A stretch of 64,000 nt of DNA from a virus (IMGVR_UViG_3300032431_000008:74-64073), one strand, 5' to 3'; positions 68 through 63,900 are shown, counted from the first letter of the stretch. A program made the numbers and translations. The notes: generated from the sequence alone by a model not told the origin.

Positions 68-533
68 GGCGATACAAGATTATCGCGTTTCCAACTCATG
101 GCCGCTGGGTGATCCAGAAGCCGATGTGCTTGAGCACTACGCCAAGGTTGCCCCATGGCTGGTTGTGGAAGATGGAGAGCCTGTTAAGGCGCGGGGTATT
201 CCTGAGCACGTTAAGCCTTTGTTTATTTGGTTAAACGACGTTAAGCAGAGTGGGGGCACAGGGCTTTGCACGAAGGCGGAGGCGAAAGAGCGTTGGGCGG
301 GGTGTGTTGGCTGTAAGTATTCGTCGGAAATAGATTGGGACTACTCGCCAGAAACCAGCAAGATGCAGGTGGATGCGGCTATTATACGCAGGATGCAGAA
401 GAGCCCGGTGGAGAACTCGTATTGTCGCCTGCACAAGTGGGCAACGGGTGTGGCGGTGTTCCTTGCCAAGCAAAAGGTGAGCCCTGCGAATAAGGAGCGT
501 TCACCGGATGGTTGCTTTGTGCTTAAACTTTAG
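1..533 (+). CDS. Hypothetical Cys-containing protein; 3' part of an ORF starting at 63897 across the junction
   Basis: ATG at 63897 overlaps the terminase stop and reads MMRYNENAQRRPIGGHHFLDRGQIIRADTF(P/R)ELVQAIQDY into ORF 60..533. Confidence 0.8.
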   Translation, partial: GGHHFLDRGQIIRADTFRELVQAIQDYRVSNSWPLGDPEADVLEHYAKVAPWLVVEDGEPVKARGIPEHVKPLFIWLNDVKQSGGTGLCTKAEAKERWAGCVGCKYSSEIDWDYSPETSKMQVDAAIIRRMQKSPVENSYCRLHKWATGVAVFLAKQKVSPANKERSPDGCFVLKL

Positions 534-768
534 TCGGCGTCGCCCAATGGTTTGCCATAAAATCAAGCAGATGCAGCTCGTCATCGCCCATCGTAGGACG
601 GCCCGCTTTTTTGGCATCGGCGCGACTCATGTTTACGCAGTCGTGGACTGTGGCGCGGCATTCTATGTGAGCGTCTAGGTCGTTGCCTTCTGGCCCGCAG
701 GCAAGACGGGGCTCTACCCATTCAAGTTTTAGGGTGTGTCGCTGTTCTAGCATTTGTTCAGTAGTCAT
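523..768 (-). CDS. Hypothetical protein
   Basis: ORF track; part of a tightly packed minus-strand operon. Confidence 0.6.
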   Translation of the reverse strand: MTTEQMLEQRHTLKLEWVEPRLACGPEGNDLDAHIECRATVHDCVNMSRADAKKAGRPTMGDDELHLLDFMANHWATPTKV

Positions 769-775
769 GTGGTGG

Positions 776-940
776 TTAAGCTTTAGGTAGCCGCCTAGTA
801 ATCTCGCGTCGAATCGCCGAAGCTGCGCGCACCGCCGCGTCGCTGTCCGAGGCTTTGGCCCTGCGGTATGCGGCTGCTAGTTCATCGGCTGATAGTGAGG
901 CCAAGAGTTCGGCGGTAAAGGTTTGGTCATTTGTGTTCAT
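776..940 (-). CDS. Small hypothetical protein (54 aa, MNTNDQTF...RRLPKA)
   Basis: Hand-translated; fills the gap between neighbouring ORFs. Confidence 0.55.
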   Translation of the reverse strand: MNTNDQTFTAELLASLSADELAAAYRRAKASDSDAAVRAASAIRREITRRLPKA

Positions 941-952
941 GGTGTGAGTAGG

Positions 953-2323: not shown

Positions 2324-3676
2324 TCACCCGCAGTAATTGTCGAAGCGGGTTATCGTGTTGGAAAAAGCGAGGTTCACGTCGCCTACCTCCCCATTGCGGT
2401 TCTTGTTAATCATTAGCCCCATCAGGTTAGATGCGGTCTGGAACTCGTCGCCTTCTGCTTTGGGCCGGTAGAGCATCATCACCACGTCGGCATCCTGTTC
2501 AATTGCGCCGGACTCGCGCAGGTCGGACAGGCGGGGCTTGCGGTCGCCTTTCTCGGAATCGCGGTTAAGCTGGGCAAGGACCATAACGGGGATGTTCAGT
2601 TCCTTGGCCAATGCCTTGAGCCCCTTGGAAGCTTCGGCAACCTGTTGCTCACGGGGCGAGCGGGGATTGGCGGGGGCGATGAGCTGCATGTAGTCAACCA
2701 CGATAAGGGAGAGCGGTTTCTTGGCGTGGAGCCTGCGGGCCTTGGCGCGGATCTGCATCACGGTGGGACTGGAAGCCTCGTCAATGTAGAGCCGGGACGC
2801 CATAAACTCTTTCTCGGCTGCTTCCAGGCTGTTCAGGTCGGAGGCGGAAAGCATGCCAGCGCGAATCATTTTCTGGTTCACGCGCGCTCGGGATGAGGCC
2901 AAGCGTTTTCCAAGTTCTACGGCGGACATTTCCATGGAGAAGACGAGGCAGTTTCCTTGGGCTTTACGGCCATGGAGCGGTAAGGCTACGGCTTCGGCTA
3001 TGTTCATGGCGAGGGAGGTCTTTCCGCAGGAAGGACGGCCTGCCAGAACTATCATTTCAGACCCCTTCATACCCCAAAGGATTTGGTCAATGTCTTTAAG
3101 GCCGGTGGAAAGGCCGGTCATGGCTCCCTTGTCCTTGGCCATTTGCTTAAAGGTGGCAACGGCTGCGGACACGCAGGCACCTGCATGTTCAGCCCCGTCT
3201 TGAACGCGGGTCTGTGTGACGGCAAATATGTCGGACTCGATTTTATCCACGAACTCGGCAATGTTTCCGGTGTAGCTGTAACAGCCTTCTACGCCTGCGG
3301 TGCATACACGGATCATCTCGCGCAGTAGGGCAAGTTCCCGGACTTTCTCGATGAAGTAGGACACGCCTGCCGTGGTGGGGACGCGCCCGCTTATGCGGGT
3401 AAGGTAGGCGTAGCCGCCAATTTCATCTAGCTGCTTGGAAGTTTTGAGTTCTTCGGCTAGAACGGAAACGTCAATGAACTTGGCTGTGTTATAGATTTCA
3501 AGGAGTTTTTCGTAGCAGACGCGGTTGGCCGGGATTAGAAAGTCAGTGGGGGCAACCTTGCTTTCGATGCACTTGGAGATTACGTCCGCGCCGTCCAGTA
3601 AGCAGGCGGAAAGCAACTGCTCTTCGGCCTCAACGGAATGGGGGGGGACGCGGCCTAGGTTGGATTGTTGGGTCAT
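2324..3676 (-). CDS. dnaB: Replicative DNA helicase
   Basis: PPHSVEAEE N-terminus, Walker A GRPSCGKT, VDYMQL, LAQLNR, LSDLRESGAIEQDAD, KNRNG. Confidence 0.98.
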   Translation of the reverse strand: MTQQSNLGRVPPHSVEAEEQLLSACLLDGADVISKCIESKVAPTDFLIPANRVCYEKLLEIYNTAKFIDVSVLAEELKTSKQLDEIGGYAYLTRISGRVPTTAGVSYFIEKVRELALLREMIRVCTAGVEGCYSYTGNIAEFVDKIESDIFAVTQTRVQDGAEHAGACVSAAVATFKQMAKDKGAMTGLSTGLKDIDQILWGMKGSEMIVLAGRPSCGKTSLAMNIAEAVALPLHGRKAQGNCLVFSMEMSAVELGKRLASSRARVNQKMIRAGMLSASDLNSLEAAEKEFMASRLYIDEASSPTVMQIRAKARRLHAKKPLSLIVVDYMQLIAPANPRSPREQQVAEASKGLKALAKELNIPVMVLAQLNRDSEKGDRKPRLSDLRESGAIEQDADVVMMLYRPKAEGDEFQTASNLMGLMINKNRNGEVGDVNLAFSNTITRFDNYCG

Positions 3677-3921
3677 GGGCGGGTGGTGGTGGTTAAACGG
3701 GGCAAAACCTCACTTATAGTTGTTGTTTTGACTACGCGATAATTTGAGCATACTTTTGTATGATCGGAATCACGATACTGCTTTTCCTTTTCTCGGACAT
3801 AGCTCAGGCTTTCGCTGGAGCAGATTAGCCGCCATACGCCTTCGGAAATTTCTCCATGTAAGTCATAGATAACGTCAACGTCTGTTGACGCAGGTTGGGG
3901 GTTTTGAGCTGTGGTTGGCAT
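3673..3921 (-). CDS. Hypothetical protein
   Basis: Overlaps the DnaB start by 4 nt. Confidence 0.55.
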   Translation of the reverse strand: MPTTAQNPQPASTDVDVIYDLHGEISEGVWRLICSSESLSYVREKEKQYRDSDHTKVCSNYRVVKTTTISEVLPRLTTTTRP

Positions 3922-3926: not shown

Positions 3927-5030
3927 TTAAGCGACGGAGGCAAAGTTAGTGGCCTTAGAGCGATTCATTGAGCTTATGAGGCTGTCCTGATGCTCTCGGG
4001 GAATAACAGGCCAAGGAAGGGCTGCGTTGGGCATTCCAGGGGCATAAGGGCAGGTCGGCATATCGGAGGCTACAAATTCACGCCAGTTTGCGGGTTCGGG
4101 CAAGCAAGTAAGCGGTTTTGGCGGGGATTGGTAGGATGACGGATTTTGCTTAAACCAAGAACGGGCCTTGTCGATCTCGCCATTCCAGTTATTTACGAGG
4201 GCGGCTAGGTGGTGGCGGGAAAAGGTCTGATCCTGCGGAAGCTTGTAAAAGCGTTCAAGCAATACCCAATCCTCTTCGGGCGTGGCTGAGATGGCAGCTT
4301 TGCTGTTTCGGAACGCGGTTAGCTCATTCTTGGTCGCTGGCGTGGCGGGGCGGCGATTCACCAAGGCTTCGGCGCGAAGTTGTAGCGGGCCTTTGGCGGG
4401 GTCGGGCTTGTCGGGCTTGTCGGGCTTTGGCGGCTTGGGTGCTTGGGGCTTGGCTTCAACGAGAGGGGGGGGAAGCGGGGAACCCGCGCTTGTCTTTCTC
4501 TCTGTCTTAGAAGCCTCTGAATCTGCATTATCTGCTTTTCTATCTGTGTCTGCTATATGCACTCCAACCATTACATCACCGTTACCAACCATTACATGAG
4601 CGTTACCAACCGTTACATCACCGTTACCAACCGTTACATCGGGTGACTGATCGGGCAACGCATTCCTTACCCTGTATCGCTTAACCCGTTCAGCGTTGGC
4701 GACTTTAGCATCCTCCCTGCTTGCCATGTTGCGATACTTGGCGTGATTGAGTAATTCCCATCCTCCTGCAATAACACCAATGCGGCGACCTTCTTGATCG
4801 GGAGTGCGGGAGTATTTGTCTGGTGCGAGAAATTTATTTACGGCTTCTTCGCAGCATTCAATGGGCACGTTTGCCACTCGGGCGAGTCCGGGAATTGAGG
4901 CGTGAACCTCACCGTGCTGATCTGCTAGGGCAAGCATGGTGATCCATACGATGCGCGTTTCATGGGCCTCACTCCAGATGGTTGAGGTAATAATTGAATC
5001 GAACAGTTTTGTGTAGTTGGGCATATTCAT
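3927..5030 (-). CDS. Phage replication initiator / replisome organiser
   Basis: N-terminal YTKLFDSIITSTIW...VWITMLALAD...SIPGLARVA winged-helix type; internal tandem repeats; upstream of DnaB. Confidence 0.75.
   Translation of the reverse strand: MNMPNYTKLFDSIITSTIWSEAHETRIVWITMLALADQHGEVHASIPGLARVANVPIECCEEAVNKFLAPDKYSRTPDQEGRRIGVIAGGWELLNHAKYRNMASREDAKVANAERVKRYRVRNALPDQSPDVTVGNGDVTVGNAHVMVGNGDVMVGVHIADTDRKADNADSEASKTERKTSAGSPLPPPLVEAKPQAPKPPKPDKPDKPDPAKGPLQLRAEALVNRRPATPATKNELTAFRNSKAAISATPEEDWVLLERFYKLPQDQTFSRHHLAALVNNWNGEIDKARSWFKQNPSSYQSPPKPLTCLPEPANWREFVASDMPTCPYAPGMPNAALPWPVIPREHQDSLISSMNRSKATNFASVA
4564..4640. repeat. Four 21-bp tandem repeats (iteron-like, candidate origin)
   Basis: CCAACC(A/G)TTACAT(CAC/GAG)CGTTA starting at 4564, 4585, 4606 and 4627 (last partial), inside the initiator gene. 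Confidence 0.7.
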
Positions 5031-5078: not shown

Positions 5079-5804
5079 TTAAAGTAAGGTTGTCTGCGCG
5101 GTTTCGCGGGCGATGCGCTCTTTAGCCGCTGCAAAATAGTCCGCGTCGATTTCGCAGGCGGTCAGGTGCATCCCGGCGCAGTGGGCTGCAATGGCGTGCG
5201 AGCCCGATCCAAGGTGCGTATCTAGGATGCGTTGGCCGGGGATGGCGTAGTTGGCGAGAAGCCAGCGGTAGAGAGCGACCGGCTTTTGGGTCGGGTGGAT
5301 TCTTTTCTCCTTGTTACTCATGTCTCCTTGGAGCATTCCATTCCAGCGATACCTAAAGCAATCAATTCTAAGCCCGAATGAATGGCTGGCCAGCTCGCAT
5401 TTACTGAAAGTGCTAGAATCGTTTTCTTTGTCCCAAACAATCCGACCAACACTAGCGATGTGTTTTGCGTAATAATTGCACCCCCATATAATTTGATTTT
5501 TAGAAACTCGGGCAACCTCATTAAAGTATTCTGCATCTGGAACATGCCAATTTTTTTGTTTGGTTGGGAAACGAGTTATTCCTTTTTTGGTGGTATCCGC
5601 GCCTGCATAATTTGGCTTTCCGTATTCTGCAAAATAAGGCGGGTCAGTTATAGCCAGGTCAAAATGGTTATCGGGATAGCGAGCCATAAGCTCCATGCAG
5701 TCCTCGCAGCTTAGGTTGAGTGAGCCAACGGCAACGGCGGCATGGCGGGGAGTGGCTTCCGCGCCGTTGCTTTCAAGGGAAAAGGTTTCAGTAGTGGTAT
5801 TCAT
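5079..5804 (-). CDS. N6A/N4C DNA methyltransferase, beta class
   Basis: ITDPPY (motif IV) precedes HPTQKP and ILDTHLGSGS (motif I). Confidence 0.93.
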   Translation of the reverse strand: MNTTTETFSLESNGAEATPRHAAVAVGSLNLSCEDCMELMARYPDNHFDLAITDPPYFAEYGKPNYAGADTTKKGITRFPTKQKNWHVPDAEYFNEVARVSKNQIIWGCNYYAKHIASVGRIVWDKENDSSTFSKCELASHSFGLRIDCFRYRWNGMLQGDMSNKEKRIHPTQKPVALYRWLLANYAIPGQRILDTHLGSGSHAIAAHCAGMHLTACEIDADYFAAAKERIARETAQTTLL

Positions 5805-5872: not shown

Positions 5873-6062
5873 CTTGCACGTTTCTTTAACGTAGGCACGC
5901 AAGTTTTCGCCCGTTTTGCCTACGGTAAACTCGGTTAAACAGCGATATTCCCCAATATTCCCCGCGATTACGGCAATGTCCGCGTGAAACTCACAAAAAG
6001 CTAGGGCGTGATTAAAAAAGATTTGACTACGTGTTTAGCCATTCCCAAGGTCTGCTTAACAA

Positions 6063-8120
6063 ATGAAAGACGATTTTCTCGATGATGGCGACGGCGGGGC
6101 AAGCGACGACATGGGCAATGGCCCGGACTTGGAGGCTGGCAAAAAGATTGAAGAGGGGCGCGTCGTTACAAGCGGCAAGCAAGCCTTCGACATTTGCGAA
6201 CGGCTAGTGCAGGATTGGGACAAGGGCGTGTCTCATGCTGCCGCGATTACGAGCAAGCTGAACGGGGACCGCCCTTACAACGCCCGCACCCTTAAGAACC
6301 AAGGCAAGGCTTGGAAGACCAATATCTCCACAGGCTTCCTCTCGACTGAGTGTAATAAGATTCCCCCGCGCTTCTACATGCCGGTGTGTCAGGCCAAGTA
6401 TCTGACAGCCGCGCAACTGCCAATTGGCTGGCCAAACGGAATTGAGAAGGATCAGTTCTTCCGCTCGGCAATCACTGAGGCCATTCGCTCTTGGAAGAAG
6501 TGGAATTTTTTCATTCGTGGGTTGTCCCGCGAGGTCGGCATTTTTGGCGTAGGCTATGCGGCCTACTTTGACAAGTATGAGTGGCGTCCGTCACTGGTCC
6601 GCATGGACAAGGGCTTTGTGCCCACTGGCACGGAAATCATGGACGAGGACATTGGGTTTTTCTGTGTGAAGTGGGACTACAAGCCTGGTGAGCTGATTGC
6701 GCTTCTTCGGAAGAACAAGGAGGCCGGGTTAAAGGAATGGGACGAGGACTCGGTAGTTGAGGCGGTCAATGAGGCTTCGCCTGTGGCAGCGGATCAGTCC
6801 CGTTCTGAGGAGCGTTCTTACGAGGAGCTTATTCGCCAGTCGGTTGAGAGCTATTCCTACGCAAAGGGGAGCAAGCTGGTGAAGACCTATCACCTATTCG
6901 CCCGTGAGTTTAGCGGCAAGGTAAGCCATTACATCATCTTGCGGGACAGTAAGGGTGATTCTATGAAAATCCTCTACCGCAAAGAGGATGCCTATGACTC
7001 CATGAATTACGTGTGTGTGCCCATGGTGTTTGACTATGGCGACGGCACGATTCTTGGTAGCTGGGGCGGCGGTCAGATTCTTTTCGACATGTCTATCCAA
7101 GTGGAGAAGATTCGTAACGATTCGATTGATAACTTACGCAACCAGAACAAGCTAAAGATTCAAGTAGCCGAGGCCAAGGACGCCAATGCGGTTAAGCTAC
7201 TGGTCAATGACACGATGATGATTGTGTCGGGCGGGACGTTCAATGGTGCGGCTGCGGCCCTACCGCAGAATGTGGAAGCCTACATGAGTCTGGACGTCCA
7301 GATGACGCGGTTGGCGCAGGAAAAGATTGGTGCTTACGTGCCTCCTATTCCCTTGGCCCCATCGGACATTAAGGCTGCACAGGTCAATGCGGCAGTTGCC
7401 AAAGAGCAGGAGATTCAACAGGCATTGTTGGATAACTGGTTAATGCAGGTTGCCGGGTTGATTAACACGATTACGCTTCGTTTAACCGATCCTGATTCGC
7501 CGGATGCGGACGCGAAGAAGCTGCGCGAGAAGTTGCTTACCAAGCTGACTGAGGAAGAGATTGTGATTTACGTCACGCAGCCGAGCATCCAGACGATTCT
7601 CGACTTCACCCCCTTTGCCGCGCAACAGCGTGCGCAGTTTGCCGCGAGCAAGGCCAATAACCCGCTTTACAACCAACGCGCATTGGAGCTGGTGCAAGCG
7701 GAGGCGGCTGGTGGCATGCACTTTGCCGCGAACGTGCTACTGCCGGAAGGCGATCAGTCCATGATTCTCGACGCACAGCGCCAGCAGACCTTGGAGAACG
7801 CCGCCATGATGCTTGGAATGGCCGTTCCAGTCCTTCCCGTGGACAATGATTGGGTTCACGCCCAGGTTGTTGAGTCGGGTATTCCAAACCTGATTCAAGG
7901 TGGCAAGTTGGACATAGCTCAGTTGGCCCTTCAACATTACGCCGCGCACTACATGCAAGGCGTGGCGAAGAAGCAATGGCCCAAAGAAGAGATTAACGGG
8001 AGCAAGAAGAAGATTGCGGACTTCGAGAAGGCTTTGAATGACGCGATGCAGGCGCAGGCACAGCAACAGCAGGCCGAACAGGGTCAGCAAGGGATGCCAC
8101 AGGGTCAGCCAATGGTGTAA
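6063..8120 (+). CDS. Probable portal protein
   Basis: 685 aa, first gene of the structural operon, Q-rich C-terminal tail, upstream of scaffold and MCP. Confidence 0.75.
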   Translation: MKDDFLDDGDGGASDDMGNGPDLEAGKKIEEGRVVTSGKQAFDICERLVQDWDKGVSHAAAITSKLNGDRPYNARTLKNQGKAWKTNISTGFLSTECNKIPPRFYMPVCQAKYLTAAQLPIGWPNGIEKDQFFRSAITEAIRSWKKWNFFIRGLSREVGIFGVGYAAYFDKYEWRPSLVRMDKGFVPTGTEIMDEDIGFFCVKWDYKPGELIALLRKNKEAGLKEWDEDSVVEAVNEASPVAADQSRSEERSYEELIRQSVESYSYAKGSKLVKTYHLFAREFSGKVSHYIILRDSKGDSMKILYRKEDAYDSMNYVCVPMVFDYGDGTILGSWGGGQILFDMSIQVEKIRNDSIDNLRNQNKLKIQVAEAKDANAVKLLVNDTMMIVSGGTFNGAAAALPQNVEAYMSLDVQMTRLAQEKIGAYVPPIPLAPSDIKAAQVNAAVAKEQEIQQALLDNWLMQVAGLINTITLRLTDPDSPDADAKKLREKLLTKLTEEEIVIYVTQPSIQTILDFTPFAAQQRAQFAASKANNPLYNQRALELVQAEAAGGMHFAANVLLPEGDQSMILDAQRQQTLENAAMMLGMAVPVLPVDNDWVHAQVVESGIPNLIQGGKLDIAQLALQHYAAHYMQGVAKKQWPKEEINGSKKKIADFEKALNDAMQAQAQQQQAEQGQQGMPQGQPMV

Positions 8121-9284: not shown

Positions 9285-10661
9285 ATGGCCGAAAATATAC
9301 TTGAACAAGTAATTCAGCAGGACACGCCGCCTGCTTCCGACAATAAGGTATCCCAAGAGATCATCCAAGACGGCAAGGGCTCGACCCCTTCCAGTGGAGA
9401 AAAAGCACTTGAGGGGATTTTCGATTCATTCGCAAATGGCGATGACCCCTTTGCCGGTGCCAAGGCGGATGATGCCGTCGTCGTGGACGACTTTGGCGAT
9501 GGCAAGCCTGCCGTTAAGGTAGATGAAGTGCCTGCGGTAGTTGTTGAGGACAAGCCCGTGGCGGTGGTTGGGGAAAAGCCTGCCGTGGTTGCAGATGACT
9601 TTACCGATTTGACCGATGAGGACTTGACCCCCTCGCCACTGGATAAGCCCAAGACTGCCCGCCGCATCAACGCTTTGCTGGACAAGGTAAAAAAGACGGC
9701 TAATATCGTGGCTACTACCAAGGCTGAATTGGCCGAGAAAGCTACCAAACTGGCAGAGCTGGAGAAGAAGCTGAATGAGTCGGGTAGTTCTAATCCCGAG
9801 GTCCAGAAGCAAGTGGATGAGCTGTCCATGTATCGCCGCCGCTATCAATTGGAGACCGACCCCGAGGTTAAGACCAAGTTCGATGACGTGATTGCTTCGC
9901 GGGAAGTGGACATTGTGAACCTGCTCAAAGACAACAGTGCGGGCGAAGGGCTGATTAACCTGATTACCTCTGAGGGCGGACTGGTCAAGTTTGCCCGCCT
10001 GAACAAAAGCTACAAGCTAGCCGATGGATCAAGCGTGAGTGCGAAGGCTTTGTTTAACCGAATCCGCGATTCTCTTACCGAGACTAACCCTGCCGATGCC
10101 TTGGCGTTGGATGCGGCTATTCAAGAGCAATCCCGGCTAAGTTCAGACAAGATCCGCTACATTGAGAGCGAGAAGGCCCGTGCCAAGGAGTATTTTGGCG
10201 AACAGGAAAAGGCCCAACAGGAACGCTCGGTAAATATCAAGACGAAGATCGACACGTTTCTTTCCAAGATGGCAACTGAGGATAACGACTTTAAGGAATT
10301 GGCTATTCCAGCGGACGCTACGCCCGCGAAGATTGCGGAACTCAAGGAAGAGAATGTTTACCGCAAGCAACTGCGCGACATTGCCAAGTCGTCTATTGGG
10401 ATTACCGATGACGAGTATCTGAACATGGTGCGCGACTCGACGCTCCTCTACCCGGTTAAACGCTCACTGGCCCGCAGCGAAGAGCGCATTAAGGCACAGG
10501 ACGCGGAGATTGCCAAGCTTAAGGAGGACTTGGACAAGGTGCGTGGTGCCTCCTCGACCGTGCCTAAGCGCGGGGTTATCTCCACGTCCAAGGCGGACGC
10601 GCCGAAAGCTACCAAGGCCAAGACACTTGAAGAAGAGTTCGACGCTATTGGCGGAGAATAA
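9285..10661 (+). CDS. Probable scaffolding protein
   Basis: Acidic, low-complexity N-terminus and long coiled-coil; between portal and MCP. Confidence 0.6.
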   Translation: MAENILEQVIQQDTPPASDNKVSQEIIQDGKGSTPSSGEKALEGIFDSFANGDDPFAGAKADDAVVVDDFGDGKPAVKVDEVPAVVVEDKPVAVVGEKPAVVADDFTDLTDEDLTPSPLDKPKTARRINALLDKVKKTANIVATTKAELAEKATKLAELEKKLNESGSSNPEVQKQVDELSMYRRRYQLETDPEVKTKFDDVIASREVDIVNLLKDNSAGEGLINLITSEGGLVKFARLNKSYKLADGSSVSAKALFNRIRDSLTETNPADALALDAAIQEQSRLSSDKIRYIESEKARAKEYFGEQEKAQQERSVNIKTKIDTFLSKMATEDNDFKELAIPADATPAKIAELKEENVYRKQLRDIAKSSIGITDDEYLNMVRDSTLLYPVKRSLARSEERIKAQDAEIAKLKEDLDKVRGASSTVPKRGVISTSKADAPKATKAKTLEEEFDAIGGE

Positions 10662-11610: not shown

Positions 11611-12267
11611 ATGTATATTGTAAATGATAGACTGGTCCGGTATAGCGTAGTTGTCGCCAAGATCATTCCGGCAAAGGGAAAGAAGCGGGAGTTGGTTGCG
11701 CAGATTCAGCAAAGCGCGCTCGACTCCTGGTTAAACGCGGCAAGTAAAGTCGTGCTCTTAAACAGGCCCGAGGAGATTCCGTATCTCAACGTAAAAGGTG
11801 CGATGTTTGAGGAAAAGTATGCGGATTCTCCTACGGTTATTTCAGCAATGGCCGTGCTGGGCGAGGAGTTGCCTGATAGTGGCTATGGTGTTCTGGTTGA
11901 GGACAGGGTTATCTTGGAACCAAAGGGCGCGCACGTTATGAACAACGTCAGGCTTGAGGCGCAACTGAGCAAGGCGTGGGTTGCCGTGGCGGACGTAGAT
12001 GTTGAGGACTTGGACGGCACTTTGCACGGGACAGGCGGGGCGGTGTTCTGGATCAGCAAGACAGTGGCCCGCTACCTCAAGGAGAGTTGCAAGAATCCGC
12101 CGCTACTGGAAAACTATCCGGTGTGGGCGTCGTGGTTGCAGGATGAGATTAAGGCCAAGGTGTTTGGGCATAGATACTTTGACGCCAGCCAGCATAACTT
12201 GGCCAAGGTAGTTGTGGTTAAGGGATTCGATGTGGTCGAGCTTACCATGCCATTTACCAAGCACTAA
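11611..12267 (+). CDS. Possible degenerate glycosyltransferase-like protein
   Basis: QQSALDSW...VVLLN pattern; within the GT cluster; no clear DxD. Confidence 0.35.
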   Translation: MYIVNDRLVRYSVVVAKIIPAKGKKRELVAQIQQSALDSWLNAASKVVLLNRPEEIPYLNVKGAMFEEKYADSPTVISAMAVLGEELPDSGYGVLVEDRVILEPKGAHVMNNVRLEAQLSKAWVAVADVDVEDLDGTLHGTGGAVFWISKTVARYLKESCKNPPLLENYPVWASWLQDEIKAKVFGHRYFDASQHNLAKVVVVKGFDVVELTMPFTKH

Positions 12268-50576: not shown

Positions 50577-50586
50577 GGGCGGGAGG

Positions 50587-51017: not shown

Positions 51018-51053
51018 GGTCGGTTTAGGTGGTGGTTATCTGTCGAGGCTTTC

Positions 51054-53015: not shown

Positions 53016-53033
53016 GGGAAGGTGTGTGCGTGT

Positions 53034-53201
53034 TTAACCAGTCTTACCCCGTGCTTGGCTATCCTCGTAGCATTTCTTGGCGACGGCTTCAGCGGATTTG
53101 CGACCGGCGTAGAAGCCCATGGAGAAGCTGGTGGAGAAAAAGCCGATTAGGTATGAGAAGGGGAGTATCAGGAATATGGAGATGATTTTAAGTGGGTTCA
53201 T
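53034..53201 (-). CDS. Small membrane protein
   Basis: Start refined; hydrophobic. Confidence 0.5.
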   Translation of the reverse strand: MNPLKIISIFLILPFSYLIGFFSTSFSMGFYAGRKSAEAVAKKCYEDSQARGKTG

Positions 53202-53419: not shown

Positions 53420-53721
53420 GGGGAGGGAGTGGCAGGCACAATAGCCGCGATGAAGTCGATAAGCTGCTTGGCGAGTTTTTCTCCTGAGTCGGGGCTTTGG
53501 AAGTCCAGGTAGATGTGTTCGGAGAATTTTGCCGGGGTGTGTTCGTCCCATCCGTGGGTATGTGCGGCAACGCTGAGCATGTGGCAGTGAGGGGAGAAGC
53601 TTACGAATATGTCGGCGATGTGTGAAGGGGTGGAGGTGGCGAGGGCGAGGATTTCTTGGATGGAGCGGATTTGGTCTGAGTGGTATCCGCGAGTGGGGGG
53701 AGTGGGAGGTGTGTTGTTCAT
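53416..53721 (-). CDS. Hypothetical protein
   Basis: 4-nt overlaps. Confidence 0.6.
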   Translation of the reverse strand: MNNTPPTPPTRGYHSDQIRSIQEILALATSTPSHIADIFVSFSPHCHMLSVAAHTHGWDEHTPAKFSEHIYLDFQSPDSGEKLAKQLIDFIAAIVPATPSP

Positions 53722-54233
53722 GGGAGAGTGGGCGTGGTTAAACAGGATTTGAGCAGGTCAGAAATCTTAGGGCTGGCGGGTGGCATAGGGGGAATGGGGA
53801 CGACCATGCCTTCGCCTTCAAAGTTGATTGCGTCGATTTCCCAGTGTCCGGTTTGCCACTCAGTTGAGCCTTCTTCCGACCAAATGCCGATAAACTCACA
53901 GCGGTATTGTGAACCGCTGCTAGATGCGCGCGCACGTGATTGTTCAACTATTTTGCAGATAGCAGGCGCGGCCCTTCTTAGGTCTTCATAATCCGTTGCT
54001 GACATGTGCTCCTCAATCCAATGGTCGGAATGCGGTGCGATTTCTTGCAGCGAATAGATAACGAGAACGTCGGATGTGAGCAGGCAGGTTGCCGGATCGG
54101 TTTCCCATTCTTCGTCTTCCTGATAGCTGCATTTATTGAGGGATGGGATGTAAACTAAAATGGAGTCCGGCGTTTCGCTTGGCGGCGGAGAGCCTGCGAA
54201 GTAGAGGGCAGTGTGAATGATAGTGGAGTTCAT
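53718..54233 (-). CDS. Acidic hypothetical protein
   Basis: Start refined. Confidence 0.6.
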   Translation of the reverse strand: MNSTIIHTALYFAGSPPPSETPDSILVYIPSLNKCSYQEDEEWETDPATCLLTSDVLVIYSLQEIAPHSDHWIEEHMSATDYEDLRRAAPAICKIVEQSRARASSSGSQYRCEFIGIWSEEGSTEWQTGHWEIDAINFEGEGMVVPIPPMPPASPKISDLLKSCLTTPTLP

Positions 54234-54472
54234 GGATAGTGGTTTCCAACGGTTTCCAGCAAGTCCGGGCAAGGCTGGTCCGGCGCGTGGTAGTGGGTCA
54301 TGTAGGAGATGTGGGAAGGCTCGTCGGGCTGGAAGGCGTGGATGAATCGCAGGCAAGTTTCGCGGTGTGGGCAGTCGAGGGACCAAAGTGTGCCGTCCAT
54401 GCCGTTGGGCATGCGGGTAAGTTTCGGGAGTAGTCCGTCGCAGCGGGCAACGTCGTAAGGGAGGGCGGGCAT
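54230..54472 (-). CDS. Small Cys-rich protein
   Basis: LPYDVARC...CPHRETCLRF...C. Confidence 0.65.
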   Translation of the reverse strand: MPALPYDVARCDGLLPKLTRMPNGMDGTLWSLDCPHRETCLRFIHAFQPDEPSHISYMTHYHAPDQPCPDLLETVGNHYP

Positions 54473-54773: not shown

Positions 54774-55031
54774 TTAATCGAGGGAAGCGCCAAAGGCCAG
54801 GACTGAGGCTGAGCGGGATTTGGCGTCCTCGGTGATGGCAAGTTGGAGTAGTTCGTAAGTGTGGGTGCGGGTTTTACGGGCTTGAAATTCTTTATTGTTG
54901 GCGATGTAGTGGGCGTTTGATGCTTCGGCAAGGGCGGCACCGGCGTTTAACATGTCCGCGCAAGCGGCGTCGTATGTGTTTTGTGCGGCGGCGACAACTT
55001 GGCCGGTGGTGAGAGGAGTTGGGGGATTCAT
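54774..55031 (-). CDS. Ala-rich helical protein
   Basis: ORF track. Confidence 0.55.
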   Translation of the reverse strand: MNPPTPLTTGQVVAAAQNTYDAACADMLNAGAALAEASNAHYIANNKEFQARKTRTHTYELLQLAITEDAKSRSASVLAFGASLD

Positions 55032-55633
55032 TGGGTGGGATTCATGGGGTGGGCGTGGAGTTTTTCTATGTTGAGTTTTTCAAGGGCGGCTCGTGCGGTA
55101 ACTTCGCAGAAGGTAAGGACTGTAAGGGACTGATTGTAGTCGTATGAGGCTTGGTTAAACGCGGCGCGGTCAATGAATCGGTTGGCGTAAGCGTCGGAGA
55201 CCTTGATTTTACGTTCTGCGCATTTCCTTTTAGCTTCAGTGAGGTCGGCTAGTGCAACATTGTGGGCGGCAACATTGATTGCTTTGGCCTCGGCTTCCTT
55301 TACGGCTACACCGGATTCATTGTAGGCTTGCATGGCGGCATCTAAAGCTTCGTCGGTTTTGCCGGGGTTGCATAAAGTTTCTGCAAAGACCTCGCCAAGT
55401 TCTTCGCGTTTGCGGTTAAGCTCGTCCAGCGATACCGGGCCTTCGCCGTCCATGAAGACCGTGGACGCGGGGCCGGAAACACGGGTAGTGGCTACGGCTT
55501 TAAGGATCTCAAATGTCTCGCCCGTGTGCTGGTTGGCAAGGCGTTCAGTCTCGGCTTGAGCAAGGGCGAGCGTTGCGTGGCGAACGGTGGGGGGATGGCT
55601 ATTTTTGCGGAGGACGTAGTAGTAAGGTTTCAT
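55028..55633 (-). CDS. Hypothetical protein
   Basis: PTVRHATLALAQAETERLA..H.GETFEIL N-terminal domain plus helical tail. Confidence 0.65.
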   Translation of the reverse strand: MKPYYYVLRKNSHPPTVRHATLALAQAETERLANQHTGETFEILKAVATTRVSGPASTVFMDGEGPVSLDELNRKREELGEVFAETLCNPGKTDEALDAAMQAYNESGVAVKEAEAKAINVAAHNVALADLTEAKRKCAERKIKVSDAYANRFIDRAAFNQASYDYNQSLTVLTFCEVTARAALEKLNIEKLHAHPMNPTQ

Positions 55634-56732: not shown

Positions 56733-56751
56733 TATTTTGGTAAGTTATCGG

Positions 56752-57168
56752 TTAAACGCCGGTAGAGCCAAAGCCATTGGCGGCGCGGGTGGTTTGGTCT
56801 AGGGAGGAGGCTGGAGTGAGTTGTGGGTAGCAGACATTGGCAAAGACGAGCTGGGCAATGCGCGACCCCTTTTTTACCATGAAGTGCATATCCGTGGTGT
56901 TGTGCAGGATCGCGCTTACCTCGCCGCGATAGTCGCTGTCGATGGTGCCGAGAATGGCGACGATGCCGGACTTTGCGGCTAGGCCGGAGCGCGGGCGAAC
57001 CTGGGCTTCAAGGCCGTAAGGGATTTCAAGGGCGATGCCGGTGGGGATAACGGCAATGGCGCAGGCTTCGATGATGTGGTCACGACAGGCGTAGAGGTCG
57101 TAGCCGGAAGCGCCGGGAGTTCCCTGTGAGGGAATCATGGCGTCGGGGTGGAGAAATTTGATATTCAT
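56752..57168 (-). CDS. dut: Trimeric dUTPase
   Basis: SGYDL, PRSGLA, GTIDSDYRGE, RIAQLV, R..NGFGSTG. Confidence 0.97.
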   Translation of the reverse strand: MNIKFLHPDAMIPSQGTPGASGYDLYACRDHIIEACAIAVIPTGIALEIPYGLEAQVRPRSGLAAKSGIVAILGTIDSDYRGEVSAILHNTTDMHFMVKKGSRIAQLVFANVCYPQLTPASSLDQTTRAANGFGSTGV

Positions 57169-57363
57169 AGTTGGGTGAATTGAAGGGTGGTTCTGGTCCT
57201 TCGCAATCACGTCCTGTTTACATATCCCCTATGATTGCCATGGGGGAAGTGTAGCGATTCTAGTTAGGGGATAATGATTGATGGGTTTTCTGTGGTTCAT
57301 GGACTAGATGTGAACGGGTGGGTCTATTTGAGCCAAGGAAGTAAGTGAAATAATTGGAGTAGT

Positions 57364-58252: not shown

Positions 58253-58707
58253 CCGGTAGGCTTGTTTTTATCTATCAGGCCAAGGCAGGGTTTTCCTTCT
58301 TCGGACAGAATTACGTGAAACTCGGGGGAGATATTGCAAGAAATCCCCTTTTTTTCATATTCCTTTGCCAGTTCCTCAATGCACGTAGTGGCACACTGCA
58401 ATAGGTGTTCCATTTGGGCACTTGGAATGGGGCCGTATTTGGTAAATGCAAAGAGCATGGCTTGCGTGATTATTGTTTGCGCCTCGGTATTAGTAAAGGG
58501 GGAGTCTTCCATAAGATTGCCCTCGTTTTTGCCAATAATGTTTGGGGTTTCTAGGCAATGTAAAAGGCATGCGTGGATTGCATCTGCGCGTTCTTGGCCG
58601 GTTTTGCCGTTAGTGGCAAAAAACAAATCTCTTATTGTTTCACAGCATGTGTTAATGAATAATGAATAGGAGTTGAGGGACTTGGCCTCTGTTTGTTCTT
58701 GGTTCAT
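58249..58707 (-). CDS. Hypothetical protein
   Basis: 4-nt overlaps. Confidence 0.6.
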   Translation of the reverse strand: MNQEQTEAKSLNSYSLFINTCCETIRDLFFATNGKTGQERADAIHACLLHCLETPNIIGKNEGNLMEDSPFTNTEAQTIITQAMLFAFTKYGPIPSAQMEHLLQCATTCIEELAKEYEKKGISCNISPEFHVILSEEGKPCLGLIDKNKPTG

Positions 58708-59420
58708 TTCTGATAGGTGGCGAAAATATCGAATTGTGGCGAGTCGCTGGTCAGGGACTTGTCGGTTATTTCCCAGGTGTAGCCATGGCGGTGTAGAATG
58801 TCGGTAACGTCGGCCATTACATTACCTTGGCGGGCTAGTGCGCCGTGGTTAATCTCGATGAGGAGGTCGGGCTTGTGGTTGGTGAGTGTGTTTTCGGCGG
58901 AGAGGAGTGCTTTTACTTCCCATCCTTCCACGTCTATTTTAATGAACGAGAGCGGTTCGTCATTGTTTAAGATGAACCAGCAAATCCAGTCGATGGACCT
59001 GACCTTGATTTCGCTTCCGGTATTTTCAGTGCGGGCGAGATACGATGCGCCTGCGTTGGTATCGGCGATGAGTTCAACGGTGGCTAGCGAGTCCGCGTCC
59101 GTGCCCACTGCGTAATTCATCGCTATGGCACTTAGGTTAAGTTCAAGATTGTGTTGAATGTTGTATTCCAAGCAAGCAAAGGCGTGGGGGTTGGGCTCAA
59201 CGGCAAGGACTACGCCCATTGGCCCGACATGCTTGGACATGGTAAGGGCGGTATCGCCAATGAATGCGCCAATATCAATGCACACGCCACCGACTTTGAC
59301 GTTCTTAAGCCAAGGAAGGATCTGCCCTTCTTGAATGTCGAGACGACCTTGGGATTCTACCCATTGGGAGATATGGCTGTCAGTTTCGATTACGGCTATT
59401 CCGTGGGAGGTGAGTTTCAT
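58704..59420 (-). CDS. FkbM-family SAM methyltransferase
   Basis: CIDIGAFIG, VLAVEPNP, FIKIDVEGWE..AL. Confidence 0.9.
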   Translation of the reverse strand: MKLTSHGIAVIETDSHISQWVESQGRLDIQEGQILPWLKNVKVGGVCIDIGAFIGDTALTMSKHVGPMGVVLAVEPNPHAFACLEYNIQHNLELNLSAIAMNYAVGTDADSLATVELIADTNAGASYLARTENTGSEIKVRSIDWICWFILNNDEPLSFIKIDVEGWEVKALLSAENTLTNHKPDLLIEINHGALARQGNVMADVTDILHRHGYTWEITDKSLTSDSPQFDIFATYQK

Positions 59421-60636: not shown

Positions 60637-60654
60637 TTTTGACAATGCCGGGGA

Positions 60655-61254
60655 GTGGGGCCAATGGAAGTGCTTATGAATGACCTTGAACCAACGATTG
60701 ACGCGATTGATATTTCCACGGAAGCCGAGGGGCGAGGTGAAGGGGCGCTAGAATTACGCCCACCGCCTAAAGTTCGGGTAAAGAAGCAAATGAGGGAGAA
60801 GCATTTCTCCAATGCGCTGATTATCCGGCGTGAGACGGGGGACAAGGTGTTGGTCCCGCTTGAAGCCAAGGACAATCGCCATGCGAACATGGTTGTGGCC
60901 GCGATGGTCCGTGAACTGGTGAAGAGCAACATTGACCTTTACAAGAAGAGCAACGAACCATTGAAGCCAAAGGAATTGGTGGATGTGGTTACGGCTGCGA
61001 AGCTGGCGGCTGAGCTGAGCTATGGGGCTTACGATTTTAATCCGTCTGAGCTAGGGCCGGACGGAAAGGCGCGGCCACCCACCGGGTCGGTATCCGGGCT
61101 CATTACGGGCATGCAGGCAATTGGGAAGGGGATGGCAGATGGATTCGCGGAGAAGCCGCAAGGATTTGCTGCAATCATGCAGTCCTTGGACGCGCTCGCC
61201 AAGAAGACGCCCATGCCCAAGAATGTTTCGCCTAGCAAAGATCAGGACGTTTAA
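60655..61254 (+). CDS. Possible terminase small subunit
   Basis: Immediately upstream of the large terminase; position only. Confidence 0.45.
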   Translation: MGPMEVLMNDLEPTIDAIDISTEAEGRGEGALELRPPPKVRVKKQMREKHFSNALIIRRETGDKVLVPLEAKDNRHANMVVAAMVRELVKSNIDLYKKSNEPLKPKELVDVVTAAKLAAELSYGAYDFNPSELGPDGKARPPTGSVSGLITGMQAIGKGMADGFAEKPQGFAAIMQSLDALAKKTPMPKNVSPSKDQDV

Positions 61255-61257
61255 CCG

Positions 61258-63900
61258 ATGACCAATGACCAAGTAAAGTTTATCCACTCGCTCTTGGAGC
61301 AAGGCAAGGAGAGCTGGGTAGATGCGGCCAACGCCATTCTCTACATATCCCAAATACCGGGGCAAGTGGCGCACTACGCGGAGGCCAAGATTATTGTGCG
61401 GGCGTTCCTGCAAAGGTTGCTGGACCATGACGACTACTTGCTGGCAGCTACGTTGCTGTGGGGGAATGTCCGGTTAAACACGCTTACCCAATATACGCAG
61501 GACGTGTTTCGGGCCATGCACGAGAACAACATGCTTTTGATCCAGGGTGGGGCATCGACGAGTAAGTGTCTAGGGCCGGACATTCCGGTGATGATGCACG
61601 ACGGATCAACCAAGAAGGCTAGGGACGTGGTGGTTGGCGACGTGCTCATGGGGGACGACTCCAATCCTCGGAATGTCCTGAGCACCACAAAAGGCAGGAG
61701 CAAGATGTATCGAATCACCCCTGAGCGTGGTGAATCGTGGATTTGCAATGACGAGCATATCCTGACAATGCGCGTGAATCAGGGCGACAAGTGGGCTGTG
61801 TTGGATATTCCCATTAAGGAATACATTGGATACCCGGAGTCGCGTAAGGCTGCGCTCAAGCAGTTTTCCGTTGGGGTGGAGTTTCCAGAGCAGCCGGTTC
61901 CCGAAGATCCATACATTTACGGTGTTCGGGTCGGCAACAATGAGCCTGGCGGGCAACTGATTCCTGAGTCCTACATGAAGAACAGCCGTGAGAATAGGTT
62001 TAGGCTTTTGGAGGGACTACTGGATTCTGATGGATACGTCGGCAAAACGAAAGCTACGGTCGCTATTAAAACCAAGTGGAAGTCACTTGCTGAGCAGATT
62101 GTTTGGCTGGCAAAGAGTCTAGGCTTTTACGCTAGATTCTCTGGTGACTATTCCTTGGTTTATATCAATTTTGACGAATGTAAATCAACTGCCAATGTTG
62201 GCATTGAAGTTGAGGGCATTGGGGAAGGTGAATACTGCGGGTTTAGCGTGGACGGGAATAGCCGATTCCTTTTGGGGGACTTCACCGTTACGCATAACAG
62301 CTACTCGATGGGAGCTTGGTTACTCCTTGACTGGATAAGAGATCCATATTTTACATCGGTCAAAATAGTCTCCAAGGACGAGAAGCATTTGAAGGGTAAT
62401 TTGTTTGGCCATATCTACTCCCTGTTCCAAGGCATGGCTATCCCGCTTACGGATAATGACGCGGAAGAAGTGGTATGGCGGGAGCACGATATGTTCCTTG
62501 GACTGAAAGCCGTGGGTAACATTGCCGGTTTGCAGGGGGAGGCACTTAAGCATTCGTCAAGTTCCTCGGGCGACTTGAAAGGGTATAAGCCTCAACCGCG
62601 CCGCAAAACGCCTCACCCAAAGTTCGGGAACATGTCTCGACTGCGGGTAGCGGTGGATGAGGCGCAATCGGCACCTGTGGGTATATTCCAAGATTTCATG
62701 TCCGTGCGAGGTTCCTTGGACGGGCTGGACTTGGTGAAGATCATTTGTGCCTACAATCCTACCAGCCTGAGCGATAGGGTGGTGAATGAGGCTGAACCTC
62801 TCCATGGCTGGATTGAGACCGACCTGGACACGCTGTATGAGTGGAAGAGCAAGAAGGGGTGGCGCGTGCTCCGGTTGGATGGCTCGCGGTCGGAAAACGT
62901 GGTAGCCAAGAGCAAGATATTCAGTGGCATCCAGACCTACGAAGGCTTTATAAGTTTCCTGCAAGGTGACGGTGCTGACAGTTCTCCCGACTACTTTACG
63001 TTCGGGCGTGGCTGGCCACCTCTCAAGGGTAGTGCCAACACGATTATCCCTGCTACTTGGTGCGTTGAGGCGCGGGGAGAAGCTGTGTGGTTGGAGAAGC
63101 CGATTATGGGGGCAAGCGTGGACCTTGCGTTCCAAGGAAGCGACACGGCGCAGATGACTATTTTTAAGTGGGGGCTGGCAAAGGGCTGGCGACGTGCCGA
63201 TGGGAAGTATGTCGAGTATGTTGACCGGACGAGCGCGGGGCGGAAGAAGCCAAGGCACGTACTGGAAGTTTACCAGATTATCCAGATGGAGAAGTCCTAC
63301 GATTCCATCCAGATGAGTGAGGAGATTACGGGTCGCTGTCAGATGTTGGGGATTTCACCGGATTGGACCGTCGTGGACAAGTCGGGTAGCGGCCTTGGCA
63401 CGTTCTCCCACCTTACGAAGTATTGGGGGAATATCATGGGGATTATGTGGGGCGATGGTGCTACGGATATGCTTGTCTTGGCGGAGGACCAAGAGGCCGC
63501 GTCGTCCCGGTTCCAAGGGATAATGTCGGAGATGTGGTTTGCTTTCCGTGAGTGGTTAAACCCCACGGTGGGGGCGATAATTATTAACCCCATGGTCCCA
63601 ACGTCGCCACTAAACGTGCAGTTGAGTTCACGCCGGTTTAGGTATGCGAAGAACGGGACGATGAAAGTTGAGAGCAAGGACGAGTATAAGCAACGGAACC
63701 AACGTAGCTGCGATGAAGCGGACAGCGTGATTCAGATTGTGCAGCTTATCCGCGCACGGGGGCATATTTTGCCTGGTATGATGGAACAGTCGGACTCCCG
63801 TTTCAGTAATCAGGAAACTGAGAAAGCTGGGCTGGAGACGGCTGACGTTGACGAATCACTTGCAATTGGCGGAGGGGGAGTCGAATACTTGGACCTATGA
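61258..63900 (+). CDS. terL: Terminase large subunit containing an intein
   Basis: Walker A GGASTSK|S, Walker B VAVDEAQ, nuclease region SVDLAF, VVDKSG, DEADS. Confidence 0.88.
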   Translation: MTNDQVKFIHSLLEQGKESWVDAANAILYISQIPGQVAHYAEAKIIVRAFLQRLLDHDDYLLAATLLWGNVRLNTLTQYTQDVFRAMHENNMLLIQGGASTSKCLGPDIPVMMHDGSTKKARDVVVGDVLMGDDSNPRNVLSTTKGRSKMYRITPERGESWICNDEHILTMRVNQGDKWAVLDIPIKEYIGYPESRKAALKQFSVGVEFPEQPVPEDPYIYGVRVGNNEPGGQLIPESYMKNSRENRFRLLEGLLDSDGYVGKTKATVAIKTKWKSLAEQIVWLAKSLGFYARFSGDYSLVYINFDECKSTANVGIEVEGIGEGEYCGFSVDGNSRFLLGDFTVTHNSYSMGAWLLLDWIRDPYFTSVKIVSKDEKHLKGNLFGHIYSLFQGMAIPLTDNDAEEVVWREHDMFLGLKAVGNIAGLQGEALKHSSSSSGDLKGYKPQPRRKTPHPKFGNMSRLRVAVDEAQSAPVGIFQDFMSVRGSLDGLDLVKIICAYNPTSLSDRVVNEAEPLHGWIETDLDTLYEWKSKKGWRVLRLDGSRSENVVAKSKIFSGIQTYEGFISFLQGDGADSSPDYFTFGRGWPPLKGSANTIIPATWCVEARGEAVWLEKPIMGASVDLAFQGSDTAQMTIFKWGLAKGWRRADGKYVEYVDRTSAGRKKPRHVLEVYQIIQMEKSYDSIQMSEEITGRCQMLGISPDWTVVDKSGSGLGTFSHLTKYWGNIMGIMWGDGATDMLVLAEDQEAASSRFQGIMSEMWFAFREWLNPTVGAIIINPMVPTSPLNVQLSSRRFRYAKNGTMKVESKDEYKQRNQRSCDEADSVIQIVQLIRARGHILPGMMEQSDSRFSNQETEKAGLETADVDESLAIGGGGVEYLDL
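61567..62298 (+). mobile_element. Intein (244 aa) with a degenerate LAGLIDADG domain
   Basis: Starts CLGPDIPV, block B WICNDEHIL, LLEGLLDSDG, ends VTHN followed by Ser. Confidence 0.95.

Follow-up and report, generated by a model that had tools for sequence, protein, structure and literature searches.

Words iterated across a whole genome are rare direct read-outs of the protein-DNA interactions that shape it, and the locus described here raises the question of what protein reads such a word in a freshwater phage, and for what purpose. The complete phage genome of 64.1 kb carries 36 copies of GGTTAAAC (20 on the plus and 16 on the minus strand), where about 2 would be expected by chance, a density of one per 1.8 kb in the window, i.e., the whole stretch of 64,000 nucleotides that was analysed. 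The original prediction had listed at least 35 copies in both orientations against an expectation of one or two; all 35 coordinates proved exact, one further copy was found at 38490 (+), and the chance models likewise give about two.

Abundance and form of the word

Order-1 and order-3 Markov models predict 2.0-2.4 copies and both rank the word first among octamers, while dinucleotide shuffles averaged 1.81 copies and never exceeded 5, and the reversed control word CAAATTGG occurs a single time in the window. The enrichment persists under a codon-preserving null, as shuffling synonymous codons within every gene left 7.4 +/- 1.7 copies (maximum 13) compared with the 36 observed. Moreover, 27 of the 76 amino-acid contexts able to encode the word synonymously use it, although this requires TTA, the rarest leucine codon.

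The full word is asymmetric and 10 bp long, Y-GGTTAAAC-R. Among 96 sites from four contigs, Y precedes the core in 87/96 and R follows it in 84/96, and no flanking signal beyond these -1 and +1 positions was found. All eight core positions are specific, with one-mismatch words at background except for GGTTAAGC (10 copies) and GGTTAAAG (9 copies), which are raised in the window, and neither of its palindromic cousins, GGTTAACC and GTTTAAAC, occurs there. Close pairs of sites are avoided (smallest gap 177 bp, P = 0.026), and the 20:16 strand distribution shows neither bias nor significant arc structure.

As had been claimed, copies lie in coding sequences (CDSs), in different frames, and in intergenic DNA: 27 are inside CDSs, six contribute their TAA as the stop codon of a gene, and the other three lie between genes (Table 1). 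The intragenic sites comprise 12 sense and 15 antisense copies, so orientation is independent of transcription, and they use both frames possible for each orientation.

Table 1 Sites of the word and the candidate reader gene in the window.
Feature	Position	Strand	Context
Site	229-236	+	CDS 60-533, sense, WLN; G001 has GGTTAAGC there
Site	3691-3698	+	Antisense, minus-strand CDS 3673-3921
Site	5933-5940	+	Intergenic, divergent genes 5079-5804 / 6063-8120
Site	7480-7487	-	Portal-like gene 6063-8120, antisense, RLT; kept in G001; most sister phages RLC
Site	10052-10059	-	CDS 9285-10661, antisense, LFNR; kept in G001
Site	10454-10461	+	CDS 9285-10661, sense, PVKR; xERR in 10/10 motif-less relatives
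Site	11729-11736	+	CDS 11611-12267, WLN; kept in G001 and L107
Site	15286-15293	+	Intergenic, ending 56 bp short of gene 15342-16898
Site	17486-17493	-	TAA is stop codon of 16907-17491
Site	17941-17948	+	TAA is stop codon of 17506-17946
Site	20221-20228	-	CDS 19259-20284, antisense
Site	20398-20405	+	CDS 20271-21455, sense
Site	21571-21578	+	CDS 21452-21769, sense; not in G001
Site	22508-22515	+	CDS 22161-23126, PVKL; kept in G001; sister phages PV[YLI]L
Site	23562-23569	-	CDS 23093-25084; in G001 residues identical, codons differ
Site	26424-26431	-	SET-domain gene 26023-26868; kept in G001
Site	27381-27388	-	CDS 26870-27820, RLT; kept in G001
Site	27772-27779	-	CDS 26870-27820, its second site
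Site	31209-31216	-	1850-aa virion gene 29188-34740
Site	31502-31509	+	1850-aa virion gene 29188-34740, sense
Site	34101-34108	-	1850-aa virion gene 29188-34740; G001 has one-off word GGTTAACC
Site	35784-35791	-	Within or adjoining small ORF 35647-35805
Site	38490-38497	+	Exonuclease gene 38233-39066; absent from the original prediction
Site	39061-39068	-	TAA is stop codon of exonuclease gene 38233-39066
Site	40964-40971	+	CDS 40735-41070; kept in G001
Site	41352-41359	-	Near start of RusA-like gene 41339-41770; codons identical in G001
Candidate reader (weak lead)	41984-42436	+	150-aa clade-specific protein, two HTH-like three-helix units
Site	42118-42125	+	Inside candidate reader gene 41984-42436
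Site	43878-43885	-	Intergenic, between minus-strand genes
Site	51363-51370	+	After a 7.5-kb motif-free, G-rich stretch
Site	53032-53039	-	Stop codon of minus-strand gene 53034-53201
Site	53736-53743	+	Antisense in 53718-54386
Site	55153-55160	+	Antisense in 55028-55633
Site	56750-56757	+	Stop codon of minus-strand gene 56752-57210
Site	61249-61256	-	Stop codon of 60655-61254
Site	61472-61479	+	Large terminase gene, RLN; relatives [LMI]FN
Site	63554-63561	+	Large terminase gene, WLN; kept in G001; sister phages W[ILM]D

Conservation of sites among relatives

A motif-bearing relative, G001, is ~72% identical in nucleotides to the window's genome (G000) and carries 54 copies of GGTTAAAC, one per 1.2 kb. 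Of the 15 alignable sites, 9-10 are identical in G001 compared with 9.2% of background octamers (p ~1e-6), synonymous positions are among those kept, and conservation between the two genomes rises exactly across positions -1 to +8. The early regions, which are non-homologous between them, gained sites too. The strands of G001 are used 37:17 overall, and 27 of the 30 sites in the 22-kb stretch leading up to the terminase genes lie on one strand, such that an enzyme entering from the terminase-adjoining end encounters the word from its 3' side. Close pairs are again avoided in this dense arm (smallest gap 237 bp, P = 1e-4), and G001 has one pair of opposed sites 26 bp apart.

Several sites were made by replacing residues which ten other relatives conserve, the changes that built sites being xERR to PVKR, W[ILM]D to WLN, and RLC to RLT. 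As judged from these sequence comparisons, selection on the word is strong enough to have changed residues that are conserved in the portal-like protein, the terminase, and a head-module protein of 458 aa (9285-10661). Since the word is kept up even by altering conserved protein residues, it must be a signal that is read by some protein. The original claim of a selected DNA-level signal is thus strongly supported by the codon-preserving null and the site conservation in G001: Y-GGTTAAAC-R serves as a recognition word in the DNA itself, is under strong selection, and occurs genome-wide in one narrow phage clade, and it is asymmetric, usable in either orientation, independent of flanking context, and dispersed without clustering.

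Distribution among phages and hosts

The motif-bearing clade comprises eight contigs of uncultured freshwater phages, obtained from separate samples and carrying 0.55-2.0 sites per kb. Sister phages, ~325 kb in total, have 4 copies in all and show no excess, and a scan of limited sensitivity revealed no genome-wide enrichment of the word in any unrelated viral contig. The clade has tail and host-recognition genes of its own, and besides the gene at 41984-42436 some 17 genes are equally clade-specific. The hosts are likely freshwater Verrucomicrobiota. In 206 genomes of Verrucomicrobiae, the class of the best DnaB match and the likely but not certain host class, the word shows no enrichment; its maximum there is 0.057 per kb, and its counts usually fall below those of the reversed control word. 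The proposed search of Opitutae chromosomes for the same word was negative.

Possible functions of the word

Several functions had been suggested for the repeats, of which a Chi-like signal and a site for a DNA-binding protein have survived, whereas a stoperator fails on orientation and location, and a methylation target is disfavoured by the lack of a common methyltransferase. Ranked first, tentatively and closely followed by sites for a clade-specific tandem-HTH-like protein and by nick motifs, is a Chi-like role, in which the word would control a helicase-nuclease that processes DNA ends. Such an enzyme would enter phage DNA at free ends, either upon injection or at the ends formed in rolling-circle replication or packaging, and would reach a word within one to two kb, where it would turn from degrading the DNA to sparing or recombining it. 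Numerous dispersed copies would then protect the chromosome of the phage while also feeding its recombination-dependent replication, and the reader could be a RecBCD- or AddAB-type enzyme of the host or a phage-controlled enzyme. Consistent with this, the word is an asymmetric octamer and the most over-represented one in the genome (36 vs ~2, and 54 copies in G001). Its density and rank resemble those of Chi in the Chi-rich phages LLS and P1, where Chi is the top octamer at one per 1.86 and 1.90 kb, followed by near-cognate words (PMC12315714). In LLS, 20/23 Chi sites have a common orientation and half lie within the terminal 22% of the genome, much like the end-clustered arm of G001 with 27/30 sites in one orientation (PMC12315714). 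The avoidance of close pairs fits independent, coverage-type sites, and if the word tracks a change of host, tail and host-recognition genes peculiar to the clade would be expected. Yet, the 206 genomes of the likely host class, in which a host Chi should be enriched provided that this class holds the host, show no excess, the limited-sensitivity scan gave no unrelated viral contig with one, and the window lacks strand bias and significant arc structure. The phage also encodes an exonuclease and a RusA-like resolvase, while Chi-rich lambdoid phages are typically without a recombination module, and the core of the word is AT-rich, while the Chi words known to us are G-rich.

It is possible, though doubtful, that the sites instead bind a phage-encoded, clade-specific DNA-binding protein, the candidate being the product of 41984-42436, which would read the asymmetric word as a monomer with two helix-turn-helix (HTH) units. 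By marking or coating the phage chromosome, the protein would play an architectural, protective, or global regulatory role. The word is limited to the phage clade, without excess in sampled host-class genomes and sister phages, and homologues of the candidate occur in motif-bearing contigs only, six being close and one more divergent (E ~1e-35), the latter on contigs with 1.6-2.0 sites per kb, while a complete sister genome (G002) lacks the gene. The candidate sequence contains two HTH-like repeats, its structural model has nine helices (mean pLDDT 74), and its weak fold and feature matches are mainly to two-domain HTH binders of transposases, homeodomains, and Mu transposase I-beta. The orientation-free sites in the window fit simple binding, and in Cluster A mycobacteriophages a monomeric two-domain repressor reads an asymmetric site at more than 20 places (PMC9283540). 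However, all fold matches fall short of significance (best E 0.25-1.3), no Pfam, PHROG, or NCBIfam match was found, ~17 other genes are equally clade-specific, co-occurrence within a single clade does not count as independent evidence, and simple binding leaves the 27:3 imbalance between the strands in an arm of G001 unexplained. It could be speculated, at rather long odds, that the word and this tandem-HTH-like protein form a self-contained phage system of an undescribed kind, in which the phage's own reader tags the chromosome every 0.5-2 kb. If true, such an identity mark would be neither Chi nor nick site nor stoperator; it could allow phage DNA to be told apart from that of the host, be it for protection, packaging, or replication, and it would be of sufficient strength to outweigh the conservation of protein sequences.

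An unlikely alternative is that a phage nicking system recognizes the word, as with the localized single-strand interruptions in T5, phiKMV-like, and tf/LUZ24-like podophages. Nick motifs are asymmetric, about 9 bases long, enriched in a single clade, and located in and outside genes, with positions that stay similar even where nucleotide similarity is low and that cluster in one half of the genome (PMC3517423, PMC11780129). Asymmetry, clade restriction, gene independence, kept positions, and uneven spread are all present for the word, the dense arm of G001 is nearly single-stranded in orientation, and an HNH-like protein is encoded at 40735-41070, although its matches are weak (E ~0.006). Against nicking, the described cases have 4-14 sites on one strand only, compared with 36-54 on both strands here, no nickase was identified, and two opposed sites of G001 lie 26 bp apart.

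Base modification of the word by a phage enzyme, either methylation or hypermodification, is very unlikely. The word is asymmetric and exact, as with many non-palindromic modification enzymes, and two methyltransferases are encoded in the window, a CcrM-like N6-adenine enzyme (5079-5804) and one of the FkbM family (58704-59420), but the former is peculiar to this genome, with no homologue in G001, the latter is present in motif-less relatives as well, and no methyltransferase common to the motif-bearing phages was found. In addition, a modification target requires no enrichment, and restriction targets are usually avoided. Similarly improbable, if not slightly more so, is a start signal for a sequence-specific primase that spaces lagging-strand initiations. 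The 0.6-1.8 kb spacing resembles Okazaki-fragment lengths, and the documented 8-nt primase site of phage NrS-1 has TGGTTA in common with the word (PMC8718748). However, the replication modules of G000 and G001 are unrelated, their DnaB-type helicases being 30% identical with no primase in common, no primase domain was found, and the window has no arm-wise strand switch.

Finally, stoperator-like blocks to transcription, recombination sites of the integron or Xer type, and an artefact of composition or coding are hardly credible: more than 20 asymmetric sites per genome recall stoperators, but orientation is independent of transcription and 27/36 sites are intragenic; GTTAAAC within the word fits the integron core GTTRRRY, but among such words only the exact word is strongly enriched, and the attC-like flanking hairpin is absent and no integrase is known; and the artefact is rejected by the codon and Markov nulls. 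GTTAAAC has 43 copies in the window vs 7.2 expected, 36 of them inside the octamer, while 14 of the 16 possible GTTRRRY words are present, GTTAAGC at about twofold and the 12 others near or below expectation. The suggested resemblance to the XerD arm gained no support, and the flanks are uninformative.

We know of no Chi, uptake, or nick signal described for freshwater Verrucomicrobiota. The reader, once found, could provide the first end-processing control sequence for the phylum or, alternatively, uncover a new system by which a phage marks its chromosome with a protein of its own. As a diagnostic, the word also offers a simple way to place metagenomic fragments in the clade.

Comparison with known systems

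The DNA uptake sequences of Neisseriaceae (DUS) and Pasteurellaceae (USS) and HIP1 of cyanobacteria are words of cellular chromosomes. Like the present word, they are short and exact and occur about once per kb in genes and spacers on both strands, whereas here the sampled host-class chromosomes show no excess, which is restricted to a phage clade. As in the Chi-rich phages LLS and P1 (PMC12315714, PMC3784561), the top octamer is asymmetric, occurs about once per 1.2-1.9 kb in and outside genes, and is accompanied by raised near-cognate words, and G001 shares a dominant orientation clustered towards the packaging-gene end. In contrast to Chi, the word is unrelated to known Chi sequences, has an AT-rich core, lacks orientation bias in the window, and is not in excess in the 206 genomes of the presumed host class; and while Chi-rich phages rely on host RecBCD, the present phage has an exonuclease and a resolvase.

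The nick motifs of tf, Rembedalsseter, and LUZ24-like podophages (WACTRTGAC) and of phiKMV-like and T5 phages are also short, asymmetric, clade-restricted, and enriched, with gene-independent positions kept among relatives, uneven spread along the genome, and unknown function (PMC3517423, PMC11780129). They differ in being confined to one strand, with 4-14 copies, as opposed to 36-54 on both strands for the present word. Cluster A mycobacteriophage stoperators are 13 bp long, located in short intergenic spaces and promoters, and oriented with transcription, unlike the 10-bp, mostly intragenic sites in either orientation described here (PMC9283540). Nevertheless, they too are asymmetric and scattered through a phage genome at more than 20 places, and their monomeric repressor with two HTH-type domains is a precedent for the reading of such a word (PMC9283540).

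Genome organization

The window covers a 64,108-base virus record from position 74 to position 64073. The record's opening 175 bases are found again at its end, with one mismatch (window positions 1-102 and the sequence beyond 63861). With this repeat at both record ends, the genome is complete, and its ends are either circularly permuted or carry short direct terminal repeats. An 8-kb test stretch was found entire in one run labelled freshwater metagenome, and about 6% of its words were found in a second freshwater run. Searching for tRNAs for host assignment gave none, and structure and family searches of 3927-5030 returned nothing informative.

In the 880-aa product of the large terminase gene, approximately residues 109-294 form an intein that contains Hint and LAGLIDADG homing-endonuclease domains; the homologue in G001, the closest complete relative, has 636 amino acids and apparently lacks the intein. 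G001 also has no homologue of the CcrM-like N6-adenine DNA methyltransferase gene. GC skew is positive across the whole window regardless of gene direction, and the minus-strand early genes are rich in C and A on their coding strand, which points to a source of strand asymmetry other than transcription. Eight copies of GTGGTCATGG sit at start codons of small minus-strand genes, all beginning with Met-Thr and six of the eight with Met-Thr-Thr. Three of these starts are absent from our gene list, and GTGGTCATGG is an initiation or N-terminal cassette shared by these genes.

Table. Position of gene blocks and individual features in the window
Feature	Position	Strand	Content
Short minus-strand block	0.5-5.8 kb	-	DnaB helicase and CcrM-like DNA methyltransferase
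Long plus-strand block	6-42.4 kb	+	Portal-like, capsid, tail and internal-virion genes, then exonuclease, HNH-like gene and RusA-like resolvase
Minus-strand block	42.4-60.4 kb	-	Small early genes
Terminase genes	60.6-63.9 kb
CcrM-like methyltransferase gene	5079-5804
Head-module protein	9285-10661		458 aa
HTH-glycosyltransferase fusion	10648-11589
Gene ending within GGTTAAAT	12993-13778		GGTTAAAT at 13767-13774
Clade-specific protein	41984-42436	+	150 aa
G-rich stretch	43700-51300
GTGGTCATGG copies	1338, 48066, 49275, 49778, 50003, 50320, 50569, 50813
Large terminase gene	61258-63900

Abundance and form of the word

The octamer GGTTAAAC occurs 36 times in the window, 20 times on the plus and 16 times on the minus strand. 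The original prediction was right on all 35 of its coordinates and missed one further copy, at 38490. Dinucleotide shuffles averaged 1.8 copies and never exceeded 5, order-1 and order-3 Markov models predicted 2.0-2.4, and the word ranked first among all octamers. The flanks lengthen it to Y-GGTTAAAC-R and hold no information beyond that, and it is therefore not embedded in a larger repeat or hairpin. All core positions matter: words with one mismatch occur at background level, apart from two that differ by a transition or at an end and are about fourfold enriched, and the two palindromic cousins have zero copies in the window. Because the word contains TAA on both strands, one reading frame is closed per orientation; the remaining two are used in both orientations. 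Twelve copies lie sense and 15 antisense within genes; of the others, six form the stop codon of a gene and three lie between genes.

Two other palindromes are depleted in the window, namely GTTAAC (3 versus 12.6 expected) and TTTAAA (7 versus 18.3 expected), the latter also being rare in G001 and in G002, a complete sister genome. This depletion resembles restriction avoidance.

Selection on the DNA sequence

Shuffling synonymous codons within each gene left 7.4 ± 1.7 copies versus the 36 observed, and 27 of the 76 positions at which the proteins permit the word carry it, though it requires the rarest leucine codon. G001 is 66.7 kb long, with a capsid of 86% identity and ~72% identity across alignable DNA, and the word occurs in it 54 times, versus four times for a control word. 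Within the alignable DNA, 9-10 of 15 sites are identical versus 9.2% of all octamers (p ~1e-6), and identity climbs from ~0.65 to ~0.9 exactly across the word's ten positions. Both genomes also carry the word in their early regions, which have almost no genes in common. Moreover, at several sites where ten sister phages are conserved, the clade has substituted residues: the head-module protein has PVKR in place of xERR, the terminase WLN in place of W[ILM]D, and the portal-like protein RLT in place of RLC. The codon shuffle, the conservation of sites in G001 and the replaced residues thus show that the word is selected as DNA, bearing out the original suggestion of a selected signal. It arises and disappears via point mutation and is able to override protein conservation. 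The stop codon of the gene at 12993-13778 lies within GGTTAAAT, where G001 and the contig L107 both carry the full word, an example of site loss or gain through one substitution.

Spacing and orientation

Spacing is compatible with random placement, except that close pairs are missing: the smallest gap is 177 bp in the window, and for the dense arm of G001 it is 237 bp (P = 1e-4). This fits sites acting singly for coverage rather than as cooperative clusters. The window genome has no strand bias. In G001 the strand split is 37:17 overall and reaches 27:3 in the 22 kb leading up to the terminase genes, independent of gene direction, and a replichore-like switch of orientation was not significant by permutation in either genome. 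The word is missing from a 7.5-kb stretch (43.9-51.4 kb) with an unusually high G+C of 0.58-0.60, a G-rich plus strand and a GC skew of up to +0.31. Of the 36 plus-strand GGTGGTGG copies in the window, 24 lie in this stretch (two further copies are on the minus strand of the window), which may be a recently acquired module.

Distribution among phages and hosts

Eight contigs from different samples carry the word at 0.55-2.0 per kb: the window genome, G001, L107 (capsid 97% identical), L139, L140, L141, L226 and L227. Sister phages with capsids 61-76% identical are essentially without it (four copies in ~325 kb), one 97%-complete sister genome having zero copies, and no distinct enriched octamer rose above noise in any motif-less relative. 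When viral contigs were scanned for pairs of copies separated by 340-370 bp, G001 was recovered; those of the other matches that had extra copies and were checked along the entire record showed tandem repeats or local clusters with no genome-wide excess. A literature search for the word listed unrelated papers, and none describing it as a genomic signal was found.

The host guess gained support, as the best matches of the DnaB gene are chromosomal ones from genomes of Verrucomicrobia and Opitutia (56-41% identity). The excess that was to be looked for in Opitutae chromosomes did not appear: none of the 206 genomes (5 + 201) in the class of the best DnaB match was enriched (≤0.057 per kb), and the word was usually scarcer than its reversed control. 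A host-wide signal was therefore rejected for these 206 genomes.

Possible mechanisms and known systems

Three mechanisms are near-equal, ranked as Chi-like action, binding sites for a clade-specific protein, and nick sites. Possibly, the word acts like Chi and would control an end-processing enzyme. In quantitative terms, the closest match is with Chi-rich phages (PMC12315714). Of the 23 Chi sites of LLS (1 per 1.86 kb), 20 point the same way and half fall within the terminal 22%; P1 carries one Chi site per 1.9 kb, and Chi is the top octamer of either phage. However, the word is not enriched in the host class, its orientation in the window is unbiased, and the phage encodes an exonuclease and a resolvase.

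Somewhat more doubtful is that the word provides binding sites for a protein of the clade. No methyltransferase is common to motif-bearing phages only, and their replication modules differ. About 17 genes are common to the clade and missing in sisters; they include tail genes, the gene of a virion protein with a SET domain, and several that encode small proteins. Among them is the gene of the 150-aa protein, which has two HTH-like repeats and a model of nine helices; its weak feature and fold matches are mostly to bipartite HTH DNA binders, yet none is significant. Its close homologues are all on motif-rich contigs, as is a single more divergent one, a co-occurrence that agrees with a predicted reader role but is not independent of phylogeny. 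Remote homologues are on contigs too short for judging a genome-wide word; one of 9 kb has a possible word, CTTAGCTGG, of which three copies fall within a single gene, and another, L230 (2.0 kb, too short for genome-wide inference), has the palindrome GCGGCCGC four times. The HTH-glycosyltransferase fusion was rejected as reader, since it occurs in all motif-less relatives.

Nick sites are a third and somewhat less likely reading. Like the word, nick-associated motifs of podophages are clade-restricted, gene-independent and positionally conserved, but they occur in one strand orientation and in far fewer copies, whereas the word is on both strands (PMC3517423, PMC11780129). Finally, although they differ in orientation and location, stoperators resemble the word in site number and in the notion of a reader that is a monomer with two domains (PMC9283540).
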